A stretch of DNA of 64,000 bases from Hydrurus foetidus. Taxonomy: Eukaryota. The notes below the pieces were generated by a model that saw only the letters and a list, made by a program, of their open reading frames with translations, was not told where the DNA came from and did not search any database. Shown here one piece after another: positions 5,456 through 14,769 of this stretch. Where the stretch lies: the NCBI GenBank assembly GCA_900617105.1, contig UYFQ01000001.1:1984001-2048000 (forward strand), given 5' to 3'. Position numbers and translations under genes: made by a program. How positions within the stretch are numbered: position 1 is the stretch's first letter; every line of letters begins with the position of its first letter.

Positions 5456-5503
5456 GCTATGTATTTAATAGCTGCTAGCGCCCGTATTTATTGATCAAAA
5501 GCC
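5456..5503 (+). repeat. Dispersed ~48-bp repeat (family A), copy 1 of 10
   Basis: GCTATGTATTTAATAGCTGCTAGCGCCCGTATTTATTG matches the consensus GCTAN8ATAGCTGCTNGCGCCCGTATTTATTGGGCT seen elsewhere in the window. Confidence 0.85.
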
Positions 5504-5532: not shown

Positions 5533-6282
5533 TCACTTTTTTTCAGCATTTGAAATAGACTGCAGATCCTGCGCGCTCAGCCAGCGCCACTGGCCGGGCA
5601 GCAGGTCAATCGGCAAGGTTAAGTCGCCGATTCGTGAGCGATGCAAGCCGCCTGCTTCTTCGACGCGATTTCCCACCGCAGCGAGCATTCTTTTGACTTG
5701 GTGATACTTGCCTTCAGTGAGCGTCAAACTGAGTTTGTTCGTGCCGGTTTGCACGCAGGCAGCTGCTTTGACGGGCTTGGGGTCGTCATCAAGCACCACG
5801 CCGGCCAACAGTTTTTGAATTTGCACATGGGTCACCTCATGCTTGGCGGTGACTTCATACACCTTGGCAACATGGTGTTTGGGTGAGCTCATGCGGTGTA
5901 TGAATTTGCCATCGTCGCTCAGCAGCAGCAAGCCTGTGGTGTCTTGGTCCAGTCGGCCAACAGCCTGCACCCCGGCTGCGGCGCCGCCACCCCGCTGGCG
6001 TATTGGCGAAGGCAAAAGCGTGTAAATGCTGGGGTGGGTGCTAGGTTTTTGCGAGCATTCATAGCCTGCGGGCTTGTGCAGCATCAGGTACGCTTTTTCG
6101 TAATACTGCCAACTTACGCCTTGCACCCTGAACTGCAAGCTATCTGCTATGAATTCTGTAGCTGGTTGCGCCTGTACTTCATGGGCTACAGCCACTAAAC
6201 CTTGCTGTATCAGGCCCGCGCACACGCGCCGCGTGCCGAAACCCTGGCTAAAAAGAATATCTTGCAGTTGCATTGTTTTCAT
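5533..6282 (-). CDS. rsuA: RsuA-family rRNA pseudouridine synthase
   Basis: N-terminal S4-like domain, GRLDQDTTGLLL catalytic Asp motif, EGKYHQVKRM; start 6282 or 6273. Confidence 0.88.
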   Translation of the reverse strand: MKTMQLQDILFSQGFGTRRVCAGLIQQGLVAVAHEVQAQPATEFIADSLQFRVQGVSWQYYEKAYLMLHKPAGYECSQKPSTHPSIYTLLPSPIRQRGGGAAAGVQAVGRLDQDTTGLLLLSDDGKFIHRMSSPKHHVAKVYEVTAKHEVTHVQIQKLLAGVVLDDDPKPVKAAACVQTGTNKLSLTLTEGKYHQVKRMLAAVGNRVEEAGGLHRSRIGDLTLPIDLLPGQWRWLSAQDLQSISNAEKK

Positions 6283-6409
6283 CTGGATATTGTCGCTTCG
6301 CCGGAAGTTTGGCAAAACCTCGTCTAATCGGGCCGGTAGCTTGCACGCTGAACTCGGTCGGCTTTCCCGGCTTGGTACACTGAGCCGCGTAAGTTACCGT
6401 AGTTCACAA

Positions 6410-7171
6410 ATGCAAACTTTTTACCTCGCCTACTGGCCAGTTTTGGGAACCGTTGGGTTGATTGCTGCTTTTGCCGCTGGTGCTTTCGTGGCTGCCTGGT
6501 TAGCTAGGCGAGCAGCGCACCTGCGAAGAAAGGCGCCCAAGCAGTGGCCGCTTAGCCCTCGAGCCATCATCAATTCTGAAGAGCGAAAGATATGGCGCTG
6601 GTTGGAGCTGGCCTTTGTCGACTACTCCGTGATGGTGAAGCTGCCGGTCACCAGGTTTTCCATTCCAAATTCAGCCGAGCAAGGCCTTCGCTGGTATGAG
6701 CTGCTCAGCAGCCTGTATTGCACGTTTACAGTGGTGCGGGCCGACGGCCGCGTCATGGGCTGCGTAGATTTGCCCTCGCGCGCTGGACGGCCAAGCAAGG
6801 CGCAGCGCATGAAAGCTTCCATGCTGGCGCAATGCGGCATTGCCTACCTCGTGTTGCAGCAGGGAACCGAGCCAACGGTTGCCCAAATCCGCTTCAAGTT
6901 CTTGGGCGAATTGGCGTCTGCAATGCCGCAAGGCAACTATCAGGCGGCGGCTATTCAGGCAGCCAGCTCCAGCCTGCGCAGCTCAATCACGCGCAGCCGA
7001 CAAATCAGACAAGGCGACAGCGGCCCAGCGCCTCTGTCGCCCTCTTCACCCGCGCCGTTGATGCGCACCGACTCAGAGTACGCGGGCTTGGCCTCAAGCG
7101 GTTTTAATGCGCAATGGCAAGACGACTCCTTCATCATGCCGCTGGACAGCCGCAAAGGTGGCCTGAAATGA
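6410..7171 (+). CDS. Membrane-anchored DUF2726-like protein
   Basis: N-terminal TM helix followed by PRAIINSEE...VMVKLPVTRF...CTFTV...GCVDL...K..ML.QCGI pattern; start re-called to ATG 6410. Confidence 0.65.
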   Translation: MQTFYLAYWPVLGTVGLIAAFAAGAFVAAWLARRAAHLRRKAPKQWPLSPRAIINSEERKIWRWLELAFVDYSVMVKLPVTRFSIPNSAEQGLRWYELLSSLYCTFTVVRADGRVMGCVDLPSRAGRPSKAQRMKASMLAQCGIAYLVLQQGTEPTVAQIRFKFLGELASAMPQGNYQAAAIQAASSSLRSSITRSRQIRQGDSGPAPLSPSSPAPLMRTDSEYAGLASSGFNAQWQDDSFIMPLDSRKGGLK

Positions 7172-7178
7172 GCCCGCA

Positions 7179-7236
7179 AAAGAAAAAAGGCCGCTAACTG
7201 GTTGGTGTTAGCGGCCCTTAAACGGTCGTATGGTGG
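7179..7236. repeat. att site, ssrA-distal copy
   Basis: 56/58 identical to 12919-12976 (mismatches at 7200 and 7205); contains the ssrA terminator hairpin and TGGTGG (CCACCA 3' end). Confidence 0.93.
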
Positions 7237-7304
7237 GCTGGGGTCAATTGAATGATGAATTGAAACCCGCATAAACATTGGGTTTCACTGTTCTGTAAGT
7301 CGGT

Positions 7305-7326
7305 TTGTTCCCCCGTTTGCTCCCCC
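7305..7326. repeat. Putative integrase arm-type sites (2 copies)
   Basis: TTGTTCCCCC and TTGCTCCCCC in tandem with 12-bp period; the same motif occurs 6 times at the other island end. Confidence 0.75.
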
Positions 7327-7365
7327 GTTTTGGGTCTGGTACAGCCTCTTTCCAAGTCCCAAAAT

Positions 7366-7764
7366 TTAAAGACTCTTTCCTCTAGCCTGTGCAATCTGTC
7401 CTAAGTAGATGCTGCAAAGCATTTCTGCCCTATACGACCCTACACTTCCCACCCCAAAGATAAAGTCATAGTCATACCGAAAATCACCATCCATATTTAC
7501 TACGACGGCCTTGCCTTGTTTTTTTATGCAATCCGAAGTTTTAACGTACAGTTTTTGAACAGTGATTTGGCGGGTAATTTTGTTATCTTCCTTCTCTGTC
7601 CATACGACTACCTCTTCAGCGCTCTTGTTTAAACGCAGCTCGTATGAGTTTTTAAGACCCTGCCACGCTGTTGAGTTGTCACTATTTGCTGTGAGGTCAA
7701 CCCAGTCACTGGCGTACGTTGTCAATGCTGACATCAATGCCAAAGACACCAATAACCGTTTCAT
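7366..7764 (-). CDS. Exported hypothetical protein (island cargo)
   Basis: MKRLLVSLALMSALTTYA signal peptide, two Cys, AT-rich DNA; start re-called to ATG 7764. Confidence 0.7.
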   Translation of the reverse strand: MKRLLVSLALMSALTTYASDWVDLTANSDNSTAWQGLKNSYELRLNKSAEEVVVWTEKEDNKITRQITVQKLYVKTSDCIKKQGKAVVVNMDGDFRYDYDFIFGVGSVGSYRAEMLCSIYLGQIAQARGKSL

Positions 7765-7890
7765 ATTCCACGCCATTGCGATTCCACTTGCAGCGATTTC
7801 ACCCACTGTCCTTACACAAATAATACTATGTCACAACTTGCTGTTTCCGTCTGAAGCAAATACTTAAGGCTTTCCGGGGTTTAACAGTAA

Positions 7891-8112
7891 TTATTCGCAC
7901 CACTTCTTTTGCTTCCGCAGGGCCTGACTCAATGCGTTAACGGCTTGCCGTAGTTGAAGCCAGTTCCCGCCGCTCCAAGCGTTGCGCGCCACCACAGCCT
8001 TACCCTCGGGGCTTTTTGGCCTGGTGGACTGATTCCACGGTTTCCACTGCCTGATGGCTTCGCTTTGCCGTTTGCGCCGCTGTGGTGTCCATCCATTTGT
8101 ATGCTTGCCCAT
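7891..8112 (-). CDS. Small basic island protein (WKPW..ST.PKSPEGK...RNA, HGGxSTG-domain-like tail)
   Basis: GGAGG RBS before ATG 8112; STRPKSPEGKAVVARNA resembles the STGP(K/R)T.EG motif of small mobile-element proteins. Confidence 0.65.
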   Translation of the reverse strand: MGKHTNGWTPQRRKRQSEAIRQWKPWNQSTRPKSPEGKAVVARNAWSGGNWLQLRQAVNALSQALRKQKKWCE

Positions 8113-8677
8113 GATCAGCCTCCAATAGTTTGTTTTGCTGAAGTTTGGATTTTCCCGCGCGCGGGCGCGCCTGTGCGGAACGTTCAGCATCAACACGAGC
8201 CGCCGCGCCGTTGTTGACTTGTTGCGGCCCGTTGGCAATGTTGGCCTGCTTTACAAACGTGGCCTGCTTGGGGAATTTCAAGTCAAACAGCGCCGTAATG
8301 GTTGCCCGGCTCTGTGCCTGCGCTTTTAAAGCAAGCCCCAAAAAAGATTCGAAGTGCTTTTGGTATTCCTGCAAATTCGCCCGCCGTGCCAGGCTGGTGA
8401 ATATGGTCTGCAGCGCCGTGGCTTGACTGATCAGCATGGCTTCTAGGTTGTGCAGATCACCTCCCTTCACCTCAGCAAATGTGCTGCGCAGCTCATCGAT
8501 CAAAACGCTTAAATCAGCGTCCTTGCCCATGATGTTGCCCTGATAGGCCTGAACCACCACAGCGCCATTCACAGACGGTTCTAACGCCATACGCGCCTTG
8601 GCTGCCGTGGTCAACTCGACCGCCGGGGCTGCTTTGGGTTTTGCCAATTGTTTAATTGATTGCTTGGTCGCGGCCAT
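8000..8677 (-). CDS. Hypothetical island protein, alpha-helical
   Basis: 225-aa ORF containing LEAMLISQATAL...LALKAQAQSRAT...KQANIANGPQQVNN, a pattern I recall from small proteobacterial integrative elements. Confidence 0.75.
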   Translation of the reverse strand: MAATKQSIKQLAKPKAAPAVELTTAAKARMALEPSVNGAVVVQAYQGNIMGKDADLSVLIDELRSTFAEVKGGDLHNLEAMLISQATALQTIFTSLARRANLQEYQKHFESFLGLALKAQAQSRATITALFDLKFPKQATFVKQANIANGPQQVNNGAAARVDAERSAQARPRAGKSKLQQNKLLEADHGQAYKWMDTTAAQTAKRSHQAVETVESVHQAKKPRG

Positions 8678-8783
8678 GTTGCCCCTTGATGTTGGAATCG
8701 TTGAATTGACTGGTTATTGCAGTCGGCTGAAAGGCAATGCAAAGCCCGATAAACAAAGCAGCAGATGGCTTATCTATAAAGGT

Positions 8784-8915
8784 GTCCACGGCTGAAACAT
8801 TGAAACCACCTGAAAAGCCGCCTGCAAGTCCACGGCTGAAACCATAGCCCCCCGTTTTGCTGGTGCATGGTTTCGCTAGCGGACTTATAGCTTGCTGCAT
8901 GTTTCAGCCCTGGAC
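8784..8915. repeat. Iteron-like cluster, putative replication origin
   Basis: GTCCACGGCTGAAAC at 8784-8798 and 8828-8842; inverted GTCC-N6-GAAAC copies at 8870-8884 and 8901-8915. Confidence 0.65.
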
Positions 8916-9391
8916 AAAGGTTTGTGTTTTGCAAGCGATGGCAGGCCGCCGTTGGGCACTGCCCAGTCTCGCTTAACTTTGATGGCAGGCATAGCCAGTG
9001 GCGTGCTGGCCCGGTAGGCTTTGGGCTTGAAGTTGGCCAGCGCTTCATCATCAAACTTGTTTGACATGTCAAGCGCGAACCACGTCAACGCCAGCAGCTC
9101 GCAAGTGCTGGGCATATGACCCTTGCGGGTTACGTACACAAAGCCTGCATTGATCAATTCAGCCTTGCAGCGCCACAGCGTAGTGCGTGACTTCCAGCCC
9201 CGCTTGCTGACCACCGACCAGGCCACCGTTAAATTGCCGTTGTTGTTGCCCCGGTATTGCCCGGCCAGCTCGAGCAGCAACTTGCAGGCGTGTGGGCTAA
9301 GGGCAGTAAACGCGGGGCATTCAAACACGCTGTGAACAATGCCCGTAAAGCCCTCGGTGTATTTGCTGCCCTTGTATTTACTGCCCGCCAT
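8885..9391 (-). CDS. Winged-HTH protein, putative replication initiator
   Basis: F.ALSPHACKLLLEL...NNG.L......KRGWKS.TT.....EL...GF...TR.G pattern of phage-type HTH Rep proteins; iteron-like repeats at its 3' end. Confidence 0.6.
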   Translation of the reverse strand: MAGSKYKGSKYTEGFTGIVHSVFECPAFTALSPHACKLLLELAGQYRGNNNGNLTVAWSVVSKRGWKSRTTLWRCKAELINAGFVYVTRKGHMPSTCELLALTWFALDMSNKFDDEALANFKPKAYRASTPLAMPAIKVKRDWAVPNGGLPSLAKHKPLSRAETCSKL

Positions 9392-9725
9392 GGTGGCCAG
9401 CCCCACTATTCAGCACGTACAAGCCCACACGGTGGCGCTCGTTCGCTTCAGTCACCACCGTCTGCCAGTGCGTAATGATGTTGTGCCCCTGCTTGCGCAG
9501 CTGCAACACCCGCGCAGGGCAGTGGTACACGTCCAGGTAGCGCATGGCCTCAAACGTGGTGACTGGGTAGCGTGACAACGCCTCCAGTAGCCTTGCAGCT
9601 TGCGAACGGCTGGCAGTGCCTTTAAACTGGTTTCTAATAGCTTCAAGGGCTGCCTTCTTTTCAAAAGAGGCAGCCTTCTTTTTTTCTGGCTCTGTCGGCT
9701 CGACGGGGTGTTGATCAATGCTCAT
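9378..9725 (-). CDS. HTH domain protein (HTH_39-like)
   Basis: SQAARLLEAL...VTTFEAMRYLDVYHCPARVLQLRKQGHNI; ATGA overlap with the upstream ORF; start re-called to 9725. Confidence 0.75.
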   Translation of the reverse strand: MSIDQHPVEPTEPEKKKAASFEKKAALEAIRNQFKGTASRSQAARLLEALSRYPVTTFEAMRYLDVYHCPARVLQLRKQGHNIITHWQTVVTEANERHRVGLYVLNSGAGHHGGQ

Positions 9726-9991
9726 GGTGTGGCCTCCAGACGTGCCGGCAGGCGTTCTGCACCACACAGCGTGGGCAAGCAAATCACCTGCCCATATCTC
9801 GCCGCGTGGTAGTTGACTGGCCCATCATCCGGGTCAGTGCGGGTCAGTGTGTAGCCAGCCAGGGCAAACCGTGCTGCCAGCGTGGCAAACGCTTTGCCGC
9901 CGCGCTGCCCGGTCGGGTAGTCCAAGTCGTTGATAGTGTGCAAGGTACGCAAAGTTCGCACGGTTGCCACCGTGTCTGGGGCTTGATTCAT
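9722..9991 (-). CDS. Hypothetical island protein
   Basis: KAFATLAARFALAGYTL.RT..DDG; ATGA overlaps on both sides; start re-called to 9991. Confidence 0.6.
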   Translation of the reverse strand: MNQAPDTVATVRTLRTLHTINDLDYPTGQRGGKAFATLAARFALAGYTLTRTDPDDGPVNYHAARYGQVICLPTLCGAERLPARLEATP

Positions 9992-10110
9992 ACCAGCCCC
10001 CTTACCATAACGGCAAAAACCAGTGCTAATTTGTGCATAAATCGGGCTGTAGCCCAACAAATACGGGCGCAAGCAGCTATTGATTTAGAAGCGTTTGATG
10101 TTGTGTGCAT
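9988..10110 (-). CDS. 40-aa small ORF, not in the ORF track
   Basis: MHTTSNASKSIAACARICWATARFMHKLALVFAVMVRGLV*; AAGGGG RBS; its TGA overlaps the next ATG (ATGA). Confidence 0.5.
   Translation of the reverse strand: MHTTSNASKSIAACARICWATARFMHKLALVFAVMVRGLV
10045..10092 (-). repeat. Family A repeat, copy 2 (inside the island and the 40-aa ORF)
   Basis: Reverse complement GCTTCTAAATCAATAGCTGCTTGCGCCCGTATTTGTTGGGCTACAGCC. Confidence 0.85.
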
Positions 10111-10121
10111 GGCCAGCCCCT

Positions 10122-10379
10122 TCAAACCGTGACCAGCGCATTGGCTGGGTCGGTACGCTTGGCATGTAGGGCTTTGACCAGCTCGCGTATTTCAGCGTCT
10201 GACTTGCCCGCAATGCGGGCTGAAATTAAGGCATTGACCTCGTAATCTGGCCAGCCTTTTGCCCGCTGGCCTATGGCAACCCCCGTCGTAAATAAACCAG
10301 CTCTGATGGCGTTGTAAACGCTCGCATCACTACGATGTCCGGCTTTGCCCTTAACCGATGGAAGTCTGAGAATCTGCAT
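10122..10379 (-). CDS. alpA: AlpA-family regulator / recombination directionality factor
   Basis: ILRLPSV.......ASVYNAIRAGLFTTGVAIGQRAKGWPDYEV AlpA signature. Confidence 0.9.
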   Translation of the reverse strand: MQILRLPSVKGKAGHRSDASVYNAIRAGLFTTGVAIGQRAKGWPDYEVNALISARIAGKSDAEIRELVKALHAKRTDPANALVTV

Positions 10380-10494
10380 AGTTGTAGCCCCTTATCGCCA
10401 TATGGCTGTTTTTGCTGCGAAGTGCAGCAAGTGGGGGAAACGATAATTTTTTACAGAACCTAAGTCACTGGCGATAAAGCTAAGGGATTTAATG

Positions 10495-11082
10495 TCAGCT
10501 GGGTGTTGCTGCACTTGCAGCAGCCGATATTTGCTTGCTTAGCCGCGCAGTAAGCTTTCGATCACTTTCAAGATCGAACTGTGGGTCGATCATTTTTTTT
10601 TGATGTATTTTGTAATCATCCATCAGTCGAACCATGTGAATCGTCAGTTTGTTTAACTCTTTCGCCACTTCATTATTTGGAAAGTGTTCGGATAGGTTCC
10701 GCAAGTATTTTTTTGCCGCCACGATTTCTTTGTTTGCGGAAACGACACGCATGATGGTCCGCTCATCTTTGTGGAAATCCGAACCCAATTCTGACACCGC
10801 TTGTTCGTACGAAAGACCGCTGTCCTTCAACTCAGCGTACGTTGCGGCAACAAGCTCGCCATCAATACCATTACGGACCTTGGGTCGGCCCCTCCTTTTT
10901 ATGGGAAATTTATCTTCCACCATTAATTTTGCGATGATTAGATTCGCAACTTTTTGAAACTTGGGACTAGGGTCAATGCCGTCCAAGACAAATTTCGCAA
11001 GCGTGTCGAGTACGCTGTATTCAGCGCCTTTTGTTCCATTTTCAAGCTCTGCAAGAACACTTGATTCAATGCTTTCGTACAT
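10495..11082 (-). CDS. Hypothetical DNA-binding protein (AT-hook-like KRRGRPK plus HTH-like segment)
   Basis: 195-aa AT-rich ORF; KRRGRPK followed by SYEQAVSELGSDFHKDERTIMR. Confidence 0.6.
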   Translation of the reverse strand: MYESIESSVLAELENGTKGAEYSVLDTLAKFVLDGIDPSPKFQKVANLIIAKLMVEDKFPIKRRGRPKVRNGIDGELVAATYAELKDSGLSYEQAVSELGSDFHKDERTIMRVVSANKEIVAAKKYLRNLSEHFPNNEVAKELNKLTIHMVRLMDDYKIHQKKMIDPQFDLESDRKLTARLSKQISAAASAATPS

Positions 11083-11088
11083 GCTGTG

Positions 11089-11181
11089 CCCTGCTACACG
11101 CCTGACAAGAGAACCACCATCGCCGGGTCAGGGTGTCCCGGTTTTCACCATGGGCAATTACTCCATGGCTAGGCGTGGCTT
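11089..11181 (-). ncRNA. Candidate structured cis-regulatory RNA between int and alpA
   Basis: Closing stem AGCCAC/GUGGUU, two internal hairpins (CCAUGG/CCAUGG and CCGGG/CCCGG), loop CCUGAC complementary to downstream GUCAGG. Confidence 0.5.
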
Positions 11182-11188
11182 AAAGAAT

Positions 11189-11479
11189 TTACTTGCTTTG
11201 CGGCCTATCTACACTGCTGGTTGCTGCAATATAAATGTAAATTACCAACCACACCAATGCTGAAAAAACCACACCGCCGCCACCTTCGCCAGTCATACAG
11301 TCCATCTCAAAAAACGCTGCTAACCGTGGGGAAGCTGCAAGTAGTTCCACAATTCCTTTTGCGGGAATCAGAAAGCAATTTTTAAAAAGAAGCCCGAGGT
11401 CGCTGATAGTTGTAATTCCGTCGCGGTTGAAGTCGAGAGCAAAGTAAAACCGTCCGCACGAATCATTGTTGAAGTCCAT
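11189..11479 (-). CDS. Small membrane protein with a DxNxDG (EF-hand/dockerin-like) loop
   Basis: DFNRDGITTISD motif and C-terminal TM segment; ATG begins 1 nt after the integrase stop. Confidence 0.6.
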   Translation of the reverse strand: MDFNNDSCGRFYFALDFNRDGITTISDLGLLFKNCFLIPAKGIVELLAASPRLAAFFEMDCMTGEGGGGVVFSALVWLVIYIYIAATSSVDRPQSK

Positions 11480-11480
11480 A

Positions 11481-12761
11481 TTAAGCCACCTTGAATTGAA
11501 TCACGTCCCCGCCCGCCGCCAGCTTGTCCAGGTAGTCAGCCCAAAGCTGAATCTGTTCAAAGCGTTGTTTCAGGTACTGGGTGCGGTTGTAGCTTCGCCC
11601 GTTCGCGTCTTTGACGGCATGGGCCAAATTCGCCTCAATGGCCAGCGGGTCAAGGTTTAACTGGTCGACCAGCATGGTGCGGGCACTGGCCCTGAAGCCG
11701 TGCCAAGTTTGTTCTTTGCCAAAACCCAGCGCGTACAGCGCGGTGCGTACCGAGTTATCAGACACGGACCGGTCATGGCTGCGTTCACCGGGGAACACAT
11801 AGCGCCCGTGGCTTGTGAGGGGCCGCAAGCCCTTGATTAACGCAATGGCTTGGGTGGGTAGCGGTACGGTGTGCGCTTCGCCCTGCTCCTTTTCCAGCTT
11901 GGTGCGCTTCATTTTCATGCTGGGTATCGTCCACAGCGCCGCGTCCAAGTCCAGCTCTGCCCATTCCATGCTGGCCAGGTTGCCAGGGCGCTGGTACAGC
12001 AGCGGGGCCAACTGCAAGGCGGTGCGCACAATCGGCCCGCCTTTGTAGTGCTTGATGGCTCTGAGCAATTCGCCCATGCGAAGCGGGTCAACAATGGCTG
12101 CAAACGACTTGCCCCGGTACGGGGTTAGCCGTCCTTTTAGCCCCTCGGTGATGTTGCGTTGCTGTACGTCTGCCGTGGGTAGCCAGTAGTCCCACACCTG
12201 CCGGGCTAGCATCAACACGCGGTCAGCGGTTTCAATTGCGCCGCGTTGTTCAACTTTTTGCAGCGCTGCCAGCAGCTCCATAGGGTGTATGTCGGGCATG
12301 TGGCGCGCCCCAATCCACGGGAACAGGTCGCGCTCCAATTGGCGCAATGAACGCTCTGCGTGGCTGGCGCTCCATTGCGGGGCTTGTTTGGCGTACCACT
12401 CCAGCGCCACAGCCTGAAAGGTATCACCACCAGGCCGGGCGGTTTTGAGCTTGTCGACCTTGCGGGCTTGCACCGGGTCACTGCCATCGGCTTTTTGCAG
12501 CTTGGCGGTGTCACGCGCCTTGCGGGCTGCTTTCAAAGCCACAGCGGGGTAACTGCCCAACGCCATGCGGCCTTCTTTGCCGTCTTTGCGGTACTTCCAA
12601 AACCAGCGTTTTGACCCGGCGGGGCTGACTTCCAGGTAAAGCCCGCCCGCATCAGTCAGGCGGTCACGCTTTGCACCGGGCGTACACACGGCGTTTTTGC
12701 AATCAGCATCAGTCAGTATGGGGGAACAACCTTTAAAAGTGGGGGAACAACTTTTAGCCAA
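11481..12761 (-). CDS. int: P4-like tyrosine integrase with N-terminal arm-binding domain
   Basis: DAGGLYLEV...GSK.W...YR..GKE....LG.YP arm domain; catalytic R (YQRPG), K, HGFR, H (LAH), Y (RSYNR); start codon uncertain. Confidence 0.95.
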   Translation of the reverse strand: MAKSCSPTFKGCSPILTDADCKNAVCTPGAKRDRLTDAGGLYLEVSPAGSKRWFWKYRKDGKEGRMALGSYPAVALKAARKARDTAKLQKADGSDPVQARKVDKLKTARPGGDTFQAVALEWYAKQAPQWSASHAERSLRQLERDLFPWIGARHMPDIHPMELLAALQKVEQRGAIETADRVLMLARQVWDYWLPTADVQQRNITEGLKGRLTPYRGKSFAAIVDPLRMGELLRAIKHYKGGPIVRTALQLAPLLYQRPGNLASMEWAELDLDAALWTIPSMKMKRTKLEKEQGEAHTVPLPTQAIALIKGLRPLTSHGRYVFPGERSHDRSVSDNSVRTALYALGFGKEQTWHGFRASARTMLVDQLNLDPLAIEANLAHAVKDANGRSYNRTQYLKQRFEQIQLWADYLDKLAAGGDVIQFKVA

Positions 12762-12856
12762 AACGGGGGAACAAAAACACGATATACAGAGAGAAACGGG
12801 GGAACAACTTGCCTAAAATCCCAGTTTTTCCGCTTTGTTCCCCCGTTTGTTCCCCC
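12720..12856. repeat. Putative integrase arm-type sites (6 copies)
   Basis: GGGGGAACAA at 12720, 12741, 12765 and 12798; inverted TTGTTCCCCC at 12835 and 12847. Confidence 0.8.
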
Positions 12857-12902
12857 GCTTTGCATTATCAGTCATTAGCAGCCAGTGTAGGCCACTACAG
12901 CG

Positions 12903-12915
12903 TAAGTGCTTGATT
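12903..12915 (-). promoter_or_regulatory. IHF-binding site next to att
   Basis: Reverse complement AATCAAGCACTTA matches WATCAANNNNTTR; lies between the arm sites and the att repeat. Confidence 0.65.
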
Positions 12916-12918
12916 TAC

Positions 12919-12976
12919 AAAGAAAAAAGGCCGCTAACTTGTTGTTGTTAGCGGCCCTTAAACGGTCGTATGGTGG
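12919..12976. repeat. att site, ssrA-proximal copy, including the ssrA terminator
   Basis: Direct repeat of 7179-7236; GGCCGCTAAC..GTTAGCGGCC hairpin followed by a U tract on the minus strand. Confidence 0.93.
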
Positions 12977-13357
12977 AGCTGGGGGGATTTGAACCCCCGT
13001 CCGCAAGCCTTTTTCGGGCAGATCTACATGTTTAGCGGTCTGATTTAAGTCTCGCCACCTGTGTCGCGCAGTCGCACGCTACACAGGACGCCAGCATCCT
13101 ATTTTCTCGCCCGTAGCTAAGGTACCCAGCTACGAGCCAGCCGATGAAATTATCTTTACAGCCTGGAATCGTTAACTTGCGTTAAAAACCCCTTGCCCAG
13201 CCCATCGGCCTGCTGTTGTAAAGCTCACAAGCAATTAAGCTGCGAGTGCGAAACGTTCGTCGTTTGCAGTTAGTTTGTTTGAATCAGTTTTACGAGCACA
13301 CTCAGCTCGACATGCACCACACCGCGTCCGAACCCACGTCGAAACCAATGCAGCCCC
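12971..13357 (-). ncRNA. ssrA: tmRNA
   Basis: 5' GGGGCUG, 3' T-arm GGUUCAAAUCC...CAGCUCCACCA, tag ORF ANDERFALAA* at 13267-13235. Confidence 0.98.
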
Positions 13358-13368
13358 AGCGATGTATT

Positions 13369-14052
13369 TTAGGCCATTCCCAACAATTGCAATAGGGCCG
13401 ATGGGCTTTCAATGACCGCGTCGGCGCCCCATGCAGCGGTGTCTGCGCTGGCGCCGAGGTAACCGTAGGCTGCCGCTACCGTCAACATGCCAGCTGCCCG
13501 GCCCGCAACAATGTCTCGCTCGTCGTCGCCCACGTAGATGCACCGCTCGGGAGCCATCCCCAACTGGCGCGCCGCTTCAATAACCGGCGCGGGGTGCGGC
13601 TTGGCGTGAGGCGTGGTGTCACCGCTAACAATGGTTAAGGCGGTTTTAAATAGCGGCATGGCCTGAGTTAGCGGCAGCGTAAATCTCTGGGACTTGTTGG
13701 TGACTACGCCCCATTTCAGATTTGCGCGGCTGATGTGATCAATCATTTCAGCAACGCCCTCGAACGCGTAAGTTCGGCCAGTTAGGTCGAGCTCGTAGTT
13801 CTTGAAAAACTCTTCTTTCATGACTTCAAAGTCTTGATGAAGCGGTGTCATACCGAAAGCCACGCTCAGCATGCCCCGTGCTCCTGCACCTGCCATAAAG
13901 CGGTAACCGTCGAGTGGAAGTGACGGCAAGCCTCGATCTGTTCTCATCTTGTCGGCGGCAGCGCCTAGATCAGGTGCACTGTCGATGAGTGTGCCGTCCA
14001 AATCAAACAACACGGCAGTAATATTTTTAAACATAACAGGTGGACGATTCAA
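13369..14052 (-). CDS. gph: Phosphoglycolate phosphatase (HAD family)
   Basis: FDLDGTLIDS, KPHP, YVGDDERD; downstream of ubiG; start may be 14034. Confidence 0.88.
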   Translation of the reverse strand: MNRPPVMFKNITAVLFDLDGTLIDSAPDLGAAADKMRTDRGLPSLPLDGYRFMAGAGARGMLSVAFGMTPLHQDFEVMKEEFFKNYELDLTGRTYAFEGVAEMIDHISRANLKWGVVTNKSQRFTLPLTQAMPLFKTALTIVSGDTTPHAKPHPAPVIEAARQLGMAPERCIYVGDDERDIVAGRAAGMLTVAAAYGYLGASADTAAWGADAVIESPSALLQLLGMA

Positions 14053-14061
14053 GCTGGAAAA

Positions 14062-14769
14062 TCAGACTTTTGACGTGGCAAACATATAGTTGACGCTGGT
14101 GTTGTCGTCGAGCCAATAGTTCTTGGTGATGGGGTTGTACTGCAAGCCTTTGGTATGAAGCAAGTCGAGCTCACTTTGGCGGCAAAACCCAGCCAGCTCG
14201 CTTGGTTTGATTAACTTCGCGTAGTCGTGCGTTCCGCGAGGTAGCAAGTTCAGCACGTATTCAGCGCCCACAATTGCAAACAGATAGGCTTTTGCATTTC
14301 TGTTGACGGTGGAAAAAAACACGTGTCCGCCCGGCTTGACTAGCGTTGCGCAAGCTTTGACGACGAGCGATGGATCCGGTACATGCTCTAGCATTTCCAT
14401 ACACGTAACGACATCGAAGCTCTGGGGTTGTTCGGCCGCTAGCGATTCGGCACTGATTTCGCGGTAGTTGACACCCTGCGTCTGCGCCTCCATTGCGTGG
14501 AGTTGAGCGACCTTCAGGGCTTTTGTTGATAAATCGATTCCCACAACCTCTGCGCCAGATCTGGCCATGGCGTCAGCCAAAATACCGCCACCGCAACCTA
14601 CGTCAAGTACTCGCTTACCCTTTAGCGAAACGATATCTTCAATCCATGCCAAACGCAAAGGGTTGATTTGATGAAGGGGTCGAAACTCACTTTCTTTGTC
14701 CCACCACCGGTGGGCCAAGTCTGAAAATTTCGCAAGCTCTGCGGGATCAAAGTTGTTGTTAGATTGCAT
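14062..14769 (-). CDS. ubiG: Ubiquinone biosynthesis O-methyltransferase
   Basis: [36 protein letters not shown]; start re-called to ATG 14769. Confidence 0.96.

Follow-up and report, generated by a model that had tools for sequence, protein, structure and literature searches.

The window analyzed here is a stretch of 64,000 nucleotides (nt) from Hydrurus foetidus (GenBank assembly GCA_900617105.1, contig UYFQ01000001.1, positions 1,984,001 to 2,048,000 of the forward strand), and the element under study is a small island at the 3' end of a transfer-messenger RNA (tmRNA) gene, which a first-pass annotation had described as satellite-like. The tmRNA gene lies at 12971-13357 on the minus strand. 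Two direct repeats of 58 nt, 97% identical with two mismatches, were located at 7179-7236 and 12919-12976 at a spacing of 5,740 bp. They span the final tmRNA bases and the tmRNA terminator, and the likeness extends 7 bases further into the tmRNA gene (to 7243 and 12984), with one base missing from the distal copy. The attachment (att) site on the tmRNA side (12919..12984, minus strand) consists of the tmRNA 3' end and its terminator hairpin, and the distal att site (7179..7243, minus strand) of a displaced tmRNA 3' fragment followed by the terminator. The att repeats and the extent proposed at first pass were confirmed, and the island is a genuine mobile element of ~5.7 kb.

Eight copies of the motif GGGGGAACAA were counted in the 64-kb window, all of them beside the two att sites. 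Six are located at 12720..12860 (four in one orientation, two inverted), and two, at 7304..7330, adjoin the distal att. Their position at both ends suggests that they are likely integrase arm-type sites, a set separate from the iterons described below. In the nearest genome, G001, both flanks of the island were matched at 93-97%, and other genes and cargo were found behind the same distal att. Thus, the tmRNA site is a hotspot, and the island is variable among close relatives. At this tmRNA site, G001 has a different island end (locus L092, G001:C238:1-4240), which carries a helix-turn-helix (HTH) gene and several genes for secreted or membrane proteins. No empty site was found; G001 is 81% complete, and its contigs break inside the tmRNA. 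Neither an attP circle nor an empty-site joint was seen over 6000-14500 in the contigs of four public runs, a result that is no evidence either way because contigs drop rare forms and two of the runs, X1 and X2, may be the source sample. In X1, the depth of the island (1,092-1,120) was near that of the flanks (1,034).

Ten genes lie between the att sites, all on the minus strand as stated at first pass. They encode, in order, an integrase, proteins of 96 and 195 aa, AlpA, a protein of 89 aa, an HTH_39 protein, a 168-aa Rep, an overlapping pair of 225 and 73 aa, and a protein of 146 aa. The island open reading frames (ORFs; 10-13 scanned) were compared with Pfam, PHROGs, and NCBIfam. Pfam named only three, in agreement with the first-pass assignments: the tyrosine integrase (11481..12719, 412 aa from the homologous start; PF13356, PF22022, and PF00589, with the R, H-x-x-R, H, and Y motifs present), the AlpA regulator or excisionase (10122..10379; PF05930), and the HTH_39 winged-helix protein (9378..9725; PF14090, E 2e-21). 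The 89-aa ORF (9722..9991) is conserved and has no known family. NCBIfam gave nothing significant. Primase, capsid, large terminase subunit (TerL), conjugation, relaxase, and type IV secretion system (T4SS) families were not represented among these ORFs, so the reported lack of primase, capsid, and conjugation genes held. PADLOC returned no significant defence match for eight island ORFs.

The 168-aa Rep (8885..9391) is a predicted winged-helix initiator of RepA_N or O-like type. Its match to the PHROG "replication initiation O-like" was weak (E 0.003), and Pfam RepA_N did not match it. The predicted model (mean predicted local distance difference test score, 80) is a winged helix, and its best structural matches were the RepA_N initiators 4pql, 5kbj, and 4pt7 (Foldseek E 0.035-0.05), with 4ro3 at Foldseek rank 14. 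Z scores were 8.0 for 4pql (root mean square deviation 4.1 over 99 residues), 7.4 for 4pt7, and 7.2 for 5kbj; because unrelated winged helices scored close by (7.5), the RepA_N match is suggestive only. According to the available text of PMC7145576, 4PT7 and 5KBJ are RepA_N initiators, and 4RO3 is RepA of PLE, a phage-inducible island-like satellite that is helper-dependent and has no primase or helicase of its own.

The 3' end of rep contains a 15-nt exact direct repeat and an inverted copy, longer than the repeats in 100 of 100 shuffles. As seen in five close relatives, GTCC-N6-GAAAC repeats face each other at this end and are followed by a conserved AT-rich block; the origin predicted here (8770..8916) has them at 8784, 8828, and, inverted, 8901. 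Of 20 regions next to rep that were tested, 14 had a longest repeat that no more than 3 of 100 shuffles reached. The repeat sequence at the rep 3' end is particular to each Rep variant, and the spacing is 32-33 bp in several. Rep is likely to be an initiator with co-varying iterons. The first-pass proposal of a Rep-like protein with iterons stands with respect to the winged helix and the rep 3' repeats, but the GGGGGAACAA repeats do not belong to the iterons.

The distinctive part of the island is the pair of overlapping genes downstream of this origin, which the first-pass annotation had left unexplained. The larger gene (8000..8677) encodes the 225-aa protein, and the smaller (7891..8112) a basic protein of 73 aa. 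Neither has a Pfam, PHROG, or NCBIfam family. The model of the 225-aa protein comprises five helices (residues 24-134) and an unmodelled tail; its invariant positions are concentrated in the final two of these helices and in a Q/N-rich segment that follows. Fold searches with this model returned generic helical hairpins only (Foldseek against PDB and viral structures, no E <= 0.001), and the best Z in a wide fold search (VIA) was 9.9 over ~62 residues. Sequence searches against solved structures gave nothing, and ESM Atlas gave unnamed clusters only. No publication describing the pair was found, although the supplementary gene-family tables of PMC10111431, PMC10085698, and PMC9618062, which lay outside this search, could list it unnamed.

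A search with the 225-aa protein yielded 147 genome loci; the counts that follow refer to the best 80. All 80 contain the 73-aa partner. An order-wide search returned 10 loci, each with both genes. Among 28 additional viral loci detected via the 73-aa partner, 27 had the 225-aa gene, and the remaining one is at a contig end. The 225-aa profile gathered 5,869 clusters at 50% identity. Within the order of G001, the pair was present in 24 of 301 genomes (~8%), one of them the unpublished genome G206. Single-ORF fusions of the two proteins were observed in metagenome records, each a singleton cluster (P0395-P0398, P0403, P0406, P0409, P0410, P0415, and P0433; also L042); they are either natural fusions or frameshift errors.

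The slot before the pair is occupied by a primase-helicase in 37 of the 80 loci (35 by the clustering script and two, L068 and L075, by Pfam only) and by Rep in 19; none has both, 12 have neither, and in 12 the contig is too short. The primase-helicases belong to the Pfam families DUF3987, DUF927, AAA_25, DUF3631, and D5. A new class defined by the absence of a primase, as suggested at first pass, is not supported, since the same backbone more often has a primase-helicase; primase absence is a swappable trait with precedent. Long flanks were available for 48 loci; an integrase was present in 43 of them and an AlpA- or Xis-like gene in 39. Integrases are swapped as well: the relatives with the closest cores (Rep 82-85% identical) are inserted at tRNA-Pro and have integrases of only 60-61% identity, and an integrase of 81% identity accompanies a DUF927 primase. 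Repeats of a tRNA or tmRNA end spanning the pair were found in 27 loci at a length of at least 12 nt. When repeats of 11-13 nt were dropped as possible chance matches, 23 loci remained at 14 nt or more, enclosing 4.4-17.4 kb. The repeat-bounded relatives are inserted at tRNA-Pro, -Arg, -Lys, -Met, -Ser, -Thr, and -Val and at tmRNA.

Pfam scans of the relatives covered 120 and 113 selected ORFs. Varied cargo was seen, and no capsid, portal, TerL, or T4SS family was present among these ORFs; the only relaxase was a Mob_Pre protein in L009. Thus, the block is not a piece of a larger prophage or integrative and conjugative element (ICE). Pairwise ratios of nonsynonymous to synonymous substitution (dN/dS) to close relatives were 0.08-0.36 for alpA (0.08-0.20), the 89-aa gene (0.31-0.36), the HTH_39 gene, rep, and the two genes of the pair; for int, the range was 0.23-0.25. 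For the 225-aa gene, the calculation was confined to residues 24-156, because the ribosome-binding site and reading frame of the overlapping gene account for part of the conservation at the end of the protein. Purifying selection acts on the core genes. These results bear out the first-pass view of a compact stand-alone element, an initiator-plus-iteron replicon without known transfer genes, and for the family they largely refute a decayed piece of a larger prophage or ICE.

In three of the genome loci, a virion gene adjoins the pair, encoding a P22 gp7-like ejection protein in L014, a tape measure protein in L051, and a baseplate hub in L039. Many virion genes were present among 32 IMG/VR loci, a set that had been selected for viral genes. 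Several further arrangements were observed. L138-L140, L147, and L151-L158 are IMG/VR contigs of 20-30 kb that share the Rep family of the island and also have an Ant-like gene and HNH. Two or three large genes stand right before the pair, and two of the large-gene families match phage ejection proteins, which makes these loci candidate satellites with their own ejection proteins. In L130, L131, L133-L137, and L143-L146, the pair is placed beside genes for tape measure, tail, and baseplate proteins, and the scanned ORFs include neither capsid nor TerL; these loci are candidate tail-modifying satellites. Genes for Asp/Asn beta-hydroxylase-like or SET-domain proteins lie directly beside the pair in L011-L013, L046, and L058. 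In a 13-kb relative (L049:2830-6733 and 10969-12804), the cargo includes an MmeI-type methyltransferase, an Mrr nuclease, and a reverse transcriptase. The small RepA/ParA plasmids L095 and L096 (pW9NP1 and pH8NP1) and L132 share, besides the pair, a gene of 500-540 aa without a known family. L082:115-8522 is a ParA plasmid-prophage in which the 225-aa gene, without its partner, directly precedes genes for a Nu1-type small terminase subunit (TerS), TerL, portal, and capsid.

A distant link of the pair to phage terminases was obtained by way of a sister family. The profile NF041373 (HGGxSTG) matched one of 48 members of the 73-aa family at E 0.065 and none significantly; on account of this single weak match, HGGxSTG loci were collected. 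They occurred in 13 of 251 genomes; in four cases, an overlapping gene that resembles the 225-aa gene in build lies before the HGGxSTG gene. When these four preceding genes were used as queries, 16 of 401 genomes matched, and of the 19 genes recovered, 18 have a small HGG-type partner. The sister family and the 225-aa family were aligned with 91% probability over 78-80 columns (score 47.8, against at most 33.0 in 40 block shuffles). When 10 sister loci were widened to 18 kb, an integrase was seen in six, a primase/helicase in three, and the same Rep in two, with none of these in four. One sister small protein matched eight phage records, five of which were fetched. Two of the fetched proteins are encoded directly before TerL, one before HNH-TerL, and one 95 nt after an annotated pac site; the fifth (HTVC028P) is a different TerS lacking the motif. 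The four motif-bearing proteins match PHROG TerS families, and an alignment of the 73-aa profile with them covered 23 columns at 95% probability and scored 53.5, while none of 40 block shuffles exceeded 29.9. In turn, the TerS family phrog_1889 retrieved sister small genes in genomes. The motif common to the 73-aa proteins, the HGGxSTG proteins, and the TerS N-termini is STGP...EGK...N and the helix that follows it. At the level of sequence comparison, this motif and the homology of the 225-aa protein to the partner of HGGxSTG genes are what is new here.

We lean toward the interpretation that the island is a phage satellite of the layout known from phage-inducible chromosomal islands (PICIs) and their minimalist form (PICMI), in which integrase and AlpA serve excision, Rep and its iterons serve replication, and the pair forms a packaging-redirection module for the heads of a helper phage. 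The integrase and AlpA would excise the island from the tmRNA 3' end, and the winged-helix Rep would fire the iteron origin at the 3' end of its own gene, using host or helper enzymes. The pair would then redirect packaging such that island DNA enters helper phage heads, with the 73-aa protein possibly acting as the DNA-recognition part and the 225-aa protein as an oligomeric scaffold. The DNA would presumably be packaged as concatemers, as that of PICMI is by a virulent helper, and in dependence on a helper. In nature, small int/AlpA elements are packaged as concatemers, according to the available text of PMC9618062. A packaging role of the pair is likely, judged from its position and one short motif.

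A number of observations weigh against this interpretation. Three concern the present copy: the codon at the integrase start is ATA in place of the ATG seen in 8 close homologues (with an in-frame TTG 14 codons upstream, at 12761); the rep reading frame ends 3 codons sooner than in four close relatives; and residue 31 of the 73-aa protein is R, whereas G is found in 81 of 84 instances of the motif. The fold scores of Rep are middling (Foldseek E 0.035; Z 8.0 versus 7.5 for unrelated proteins). The apparent TerS link covers 23-26 columns, runs via the HGGxSTG sister family, and involves four phage proteins that were chosen by that very motif; moreover, the zinc-binding half is replaced in the 73-aa family. 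TerS profiles did not match any window protein. As identities for the 225-aa protein, a T4 gp16-like TerS (0.5% profile probability) and the C-terminal half of an HGGxSTG-type TerS (0.1%) were both rejected. Neither pair protein matched any of 50,697 phage records (tblastn), and recognizable virion genes were seen in just 3 of the 80 genome loci (ORFs scanned). In L082, the 225-aa gene stands without its partner just before a genuine Nu1-type TerS and TerL; it is thus not simply a TerS itself. Finally, the pair resides on two small Polaromonas RepA/ParA plasmids, one with a MOBV relaxase (pH8NP1), and the Mob_Pre relaxase gene of L009 lies before the pair.

Several of these points would also suit a PICMI-like hitch-hiking satellite whose pair serves some purpose other than directing packaging, such as activation or blocking of late genes in the helper, Ppi- or Rpp-like inhibition of its terminase, or stabilisation of the element. 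The missing TerS match of the 225-aa protein, the gene order in L082, and the occurrence on plasmids all fit this explanation, as does the report that PICMI is packaged without any packaging gene (PMC10803314, in its available part). We nevertheless consider it unlikely, if a serious contender, since the only detectable relatives of the 73-aa partner outside these islands are TerS-slot proteins and the pair keeps the PICI terS position in nearly all loci. Less probable still is an integrative replicon unrelated to phages, moved by conjugative mobilisation in trans, by vesicles, or by rare generalised transduction, with the pair as a maintenance or DNA-processing module. The relaxases of L009 and pH8NP1 speak for such a replicon, together with the lack of a recognizable virion gene in 77 of the 80 genome loci and of the pair in phage records. 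Against it, no relaxase or T4SS family was found in this island or in the other repeat-bounded relatives scanned, AlpA is reported to be a good PICI signature (available text of PMC10111431), and captured ejection, tape-measure, and baseplate genes adjoin the pair in relatives. The three point changes, and the fact that some IMG/VR matches fall in contigs of 56-83 kb, could be taken to indicate the decayed remnant of a larger prophage or ICE. Yet both att sites and the eight arm-type motifs are intact, the same compact plan recurs at seven tRNA types and tmRNA, purifying selection is strong, and the ORFs scanned in repeat-bounded relatives include no capsid, portal, or TerL family. Decay is largely refuted for the family, and we regard it as very improbable.

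A more far-reaching version of the packaging interpretation can be put forward only tentatively, and we hold it to be rather doubtful. The pair would be a two-gene, reordered small-terminase system, composed of a TerS-type peptide that recognises DNA as a separate protein and a new family of oligomeric scaffolds. It would mark a superfamily of satellites and satellite-like plasmids that is very large, undescribed, and missed by current finders. Through the pair, these elements could swap replicons and, by capturing genes for tape-measure, baseplate, or ejection proteins, exploit helpers among myo-, sipho-, and podoviruses. This superfamily would include the 5,869 clusters of the present branch alone and, in addition, the HGGxSTG branch. 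The pair is of interest as a marker of a large overlooked family and a candidate packaging module. Thousands of int-alpA-primase islands have been set aside as "type C" PICI-like because no packaging gene was recognised in them (available text of PMC10085698). If the pair were the missing packaging function, one profile would reclassify many type C elements, and a direct test would be at hand of how minimal satellites, PICMI included, choose DNA for packaging.

The copy in the window may be immobilised, given its three point changes. The three changed places read the same in the contigs of runs X1 and X2, which may be the source of the window. Among the other features, three ORFs had been called AT-rich cargo at first pass. 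Their composition was confirmed (44-46% GC, compared with 55-62% in the core genes), but one of them, the 195-aa ORF (10495..11082, minus strand; 45% GC, no family), is probably not cargo because its variable slot, right behind the int-alpA RNA, is occupied in relatives; it is more likely a regulator. The 96-aa ORF (11189..11479, minus strand; 46% GC) contains one strongly hydrophobic segment and has one homologue, in the same slot of L002. The 146-aa cargo ORF (7366..7806, minus strand; 44% GC) has a signal-peptide-like N terminus and no homologue among 93 loci compared. The int-alpA RNA motif (RF02996; 11100..11179, minus strand) is full length and scored 30.8 bits (E 0.002), below the gathering score of 35.8; it was above threshold in 9 of 16 relatives scanned. 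No sigma-70 promoter consensus was found. A copy of a host-wide palindromic repeat (10026..10103) lies between alpA and the 89-aa gene, and the same position is occupied in three Polaromonas elements at tRNA-Pro (L001, L004, and L006), indicating that it is an old part of the element lineage. Further copies were seen at 5467-5493, 6159-6193, and eight more places in the window, and dozens in G001.

Comparison with known systems began with markers of other satellites. Neither P4-like markers (alpha primase-helicase, Sid, Psu, and Delta) nor those of capsid-forming PICIs (own capsid, portal, TerL, and head-tail genes) were detected by Pfam, PHROGs, or NCBIfam among the island ORFs. Ppi, Rpp, Sid, Psu, and Delta are names of satellite functions. 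The tmRNA islands I23, I44, and I55, which are transduced by jumbo phages, also have a tyrosine integrase at the tmRNA 3' end, AlpA, and, in the available text of PMC12595487, no known transfer genes. They differ in their size of 20-70 kb, in alpA at the far end, and in YqaJ, inovirus Gp2, and RadC genes (PMC12595487), none of which is present here. PLE of Vibrio cholerae likewise relies on a winged-helix RepA_N initiator that binds iterons, with no primase or helicase of its own (PMC7145576, available text), whereas it uses a large serine recombinase and the present island a tyrosine integrase. In addition, the PLE marker set was not found in the island, and its Rep has just 168 aa and only a middling fold match. 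PLE is larger than the ~5.7-kb island.

The 73-aa protein shares motif and helix with HGGxSTG proteins (NF041373) and with the TerS families phrog_1889 and phrog_9231, and sister islands pair an HGGxSTG gene with a 225-aa homologue; unlike HGGxSTG proteins, the 73-aa family lacks the Cys/His zinc-binding half and falls below the NF041373 cut-off. The similarity to PICMI (Barcia-Cruz et al. 2024, PMC10803314) includes a size of ~6 kb, int, alpA, and a replication gene, a variable gene behind int, and no capsid remodelling. In the available part of that account, PICMI needs a primase and a fis site and has no packaging-like gene, whereas the island sits at tmRNA with Rep and the pair. Of the five components of the SatelliteFinder PICI model (PMC10085698, available text), the island has two, integrase and AlpA regulator; primase-replicase and capsid morphogenesis are absent, and it would score below type C. 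Rep and its repeats are likely a functional analogue of the PICI primase-replicase module. Compared with Gram-negative PICIs, the island is without a primase, a capsid-morphogenesis gene, and a profile-recognizable TerS, and it has HTH_39, the winged-helix Rep, and the unnamed late-zone pair instead. It resembles them in its tyrosine integrase, AlpA, one-way gene order, origin downstream of the replication gene, late zone capturing phage late genes, and cargo behind the terS position, and its relatives carry Rha/Ant genes and primases. As described by Tommasini et al. 2023 (PMC10111431, available text), Gram-negative PICIs consist of integration, Bro, replication, and late zones, with the origin behind the replication gene and captured late genes. 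The order int, int-alpA RNA, alpA, HTH, rep, origin, pair, and cargo fits this four-zone plan, and the pair occupies the position of terS in SatelliteFinder PICIs, with cargo behind it (PMC10085698). The undescribed class surmised in the first-pass annotation thus gives way to a published layout, and a satellite with a RepA_N initiator and iterons has its precedent in PLE (PMC7145576).

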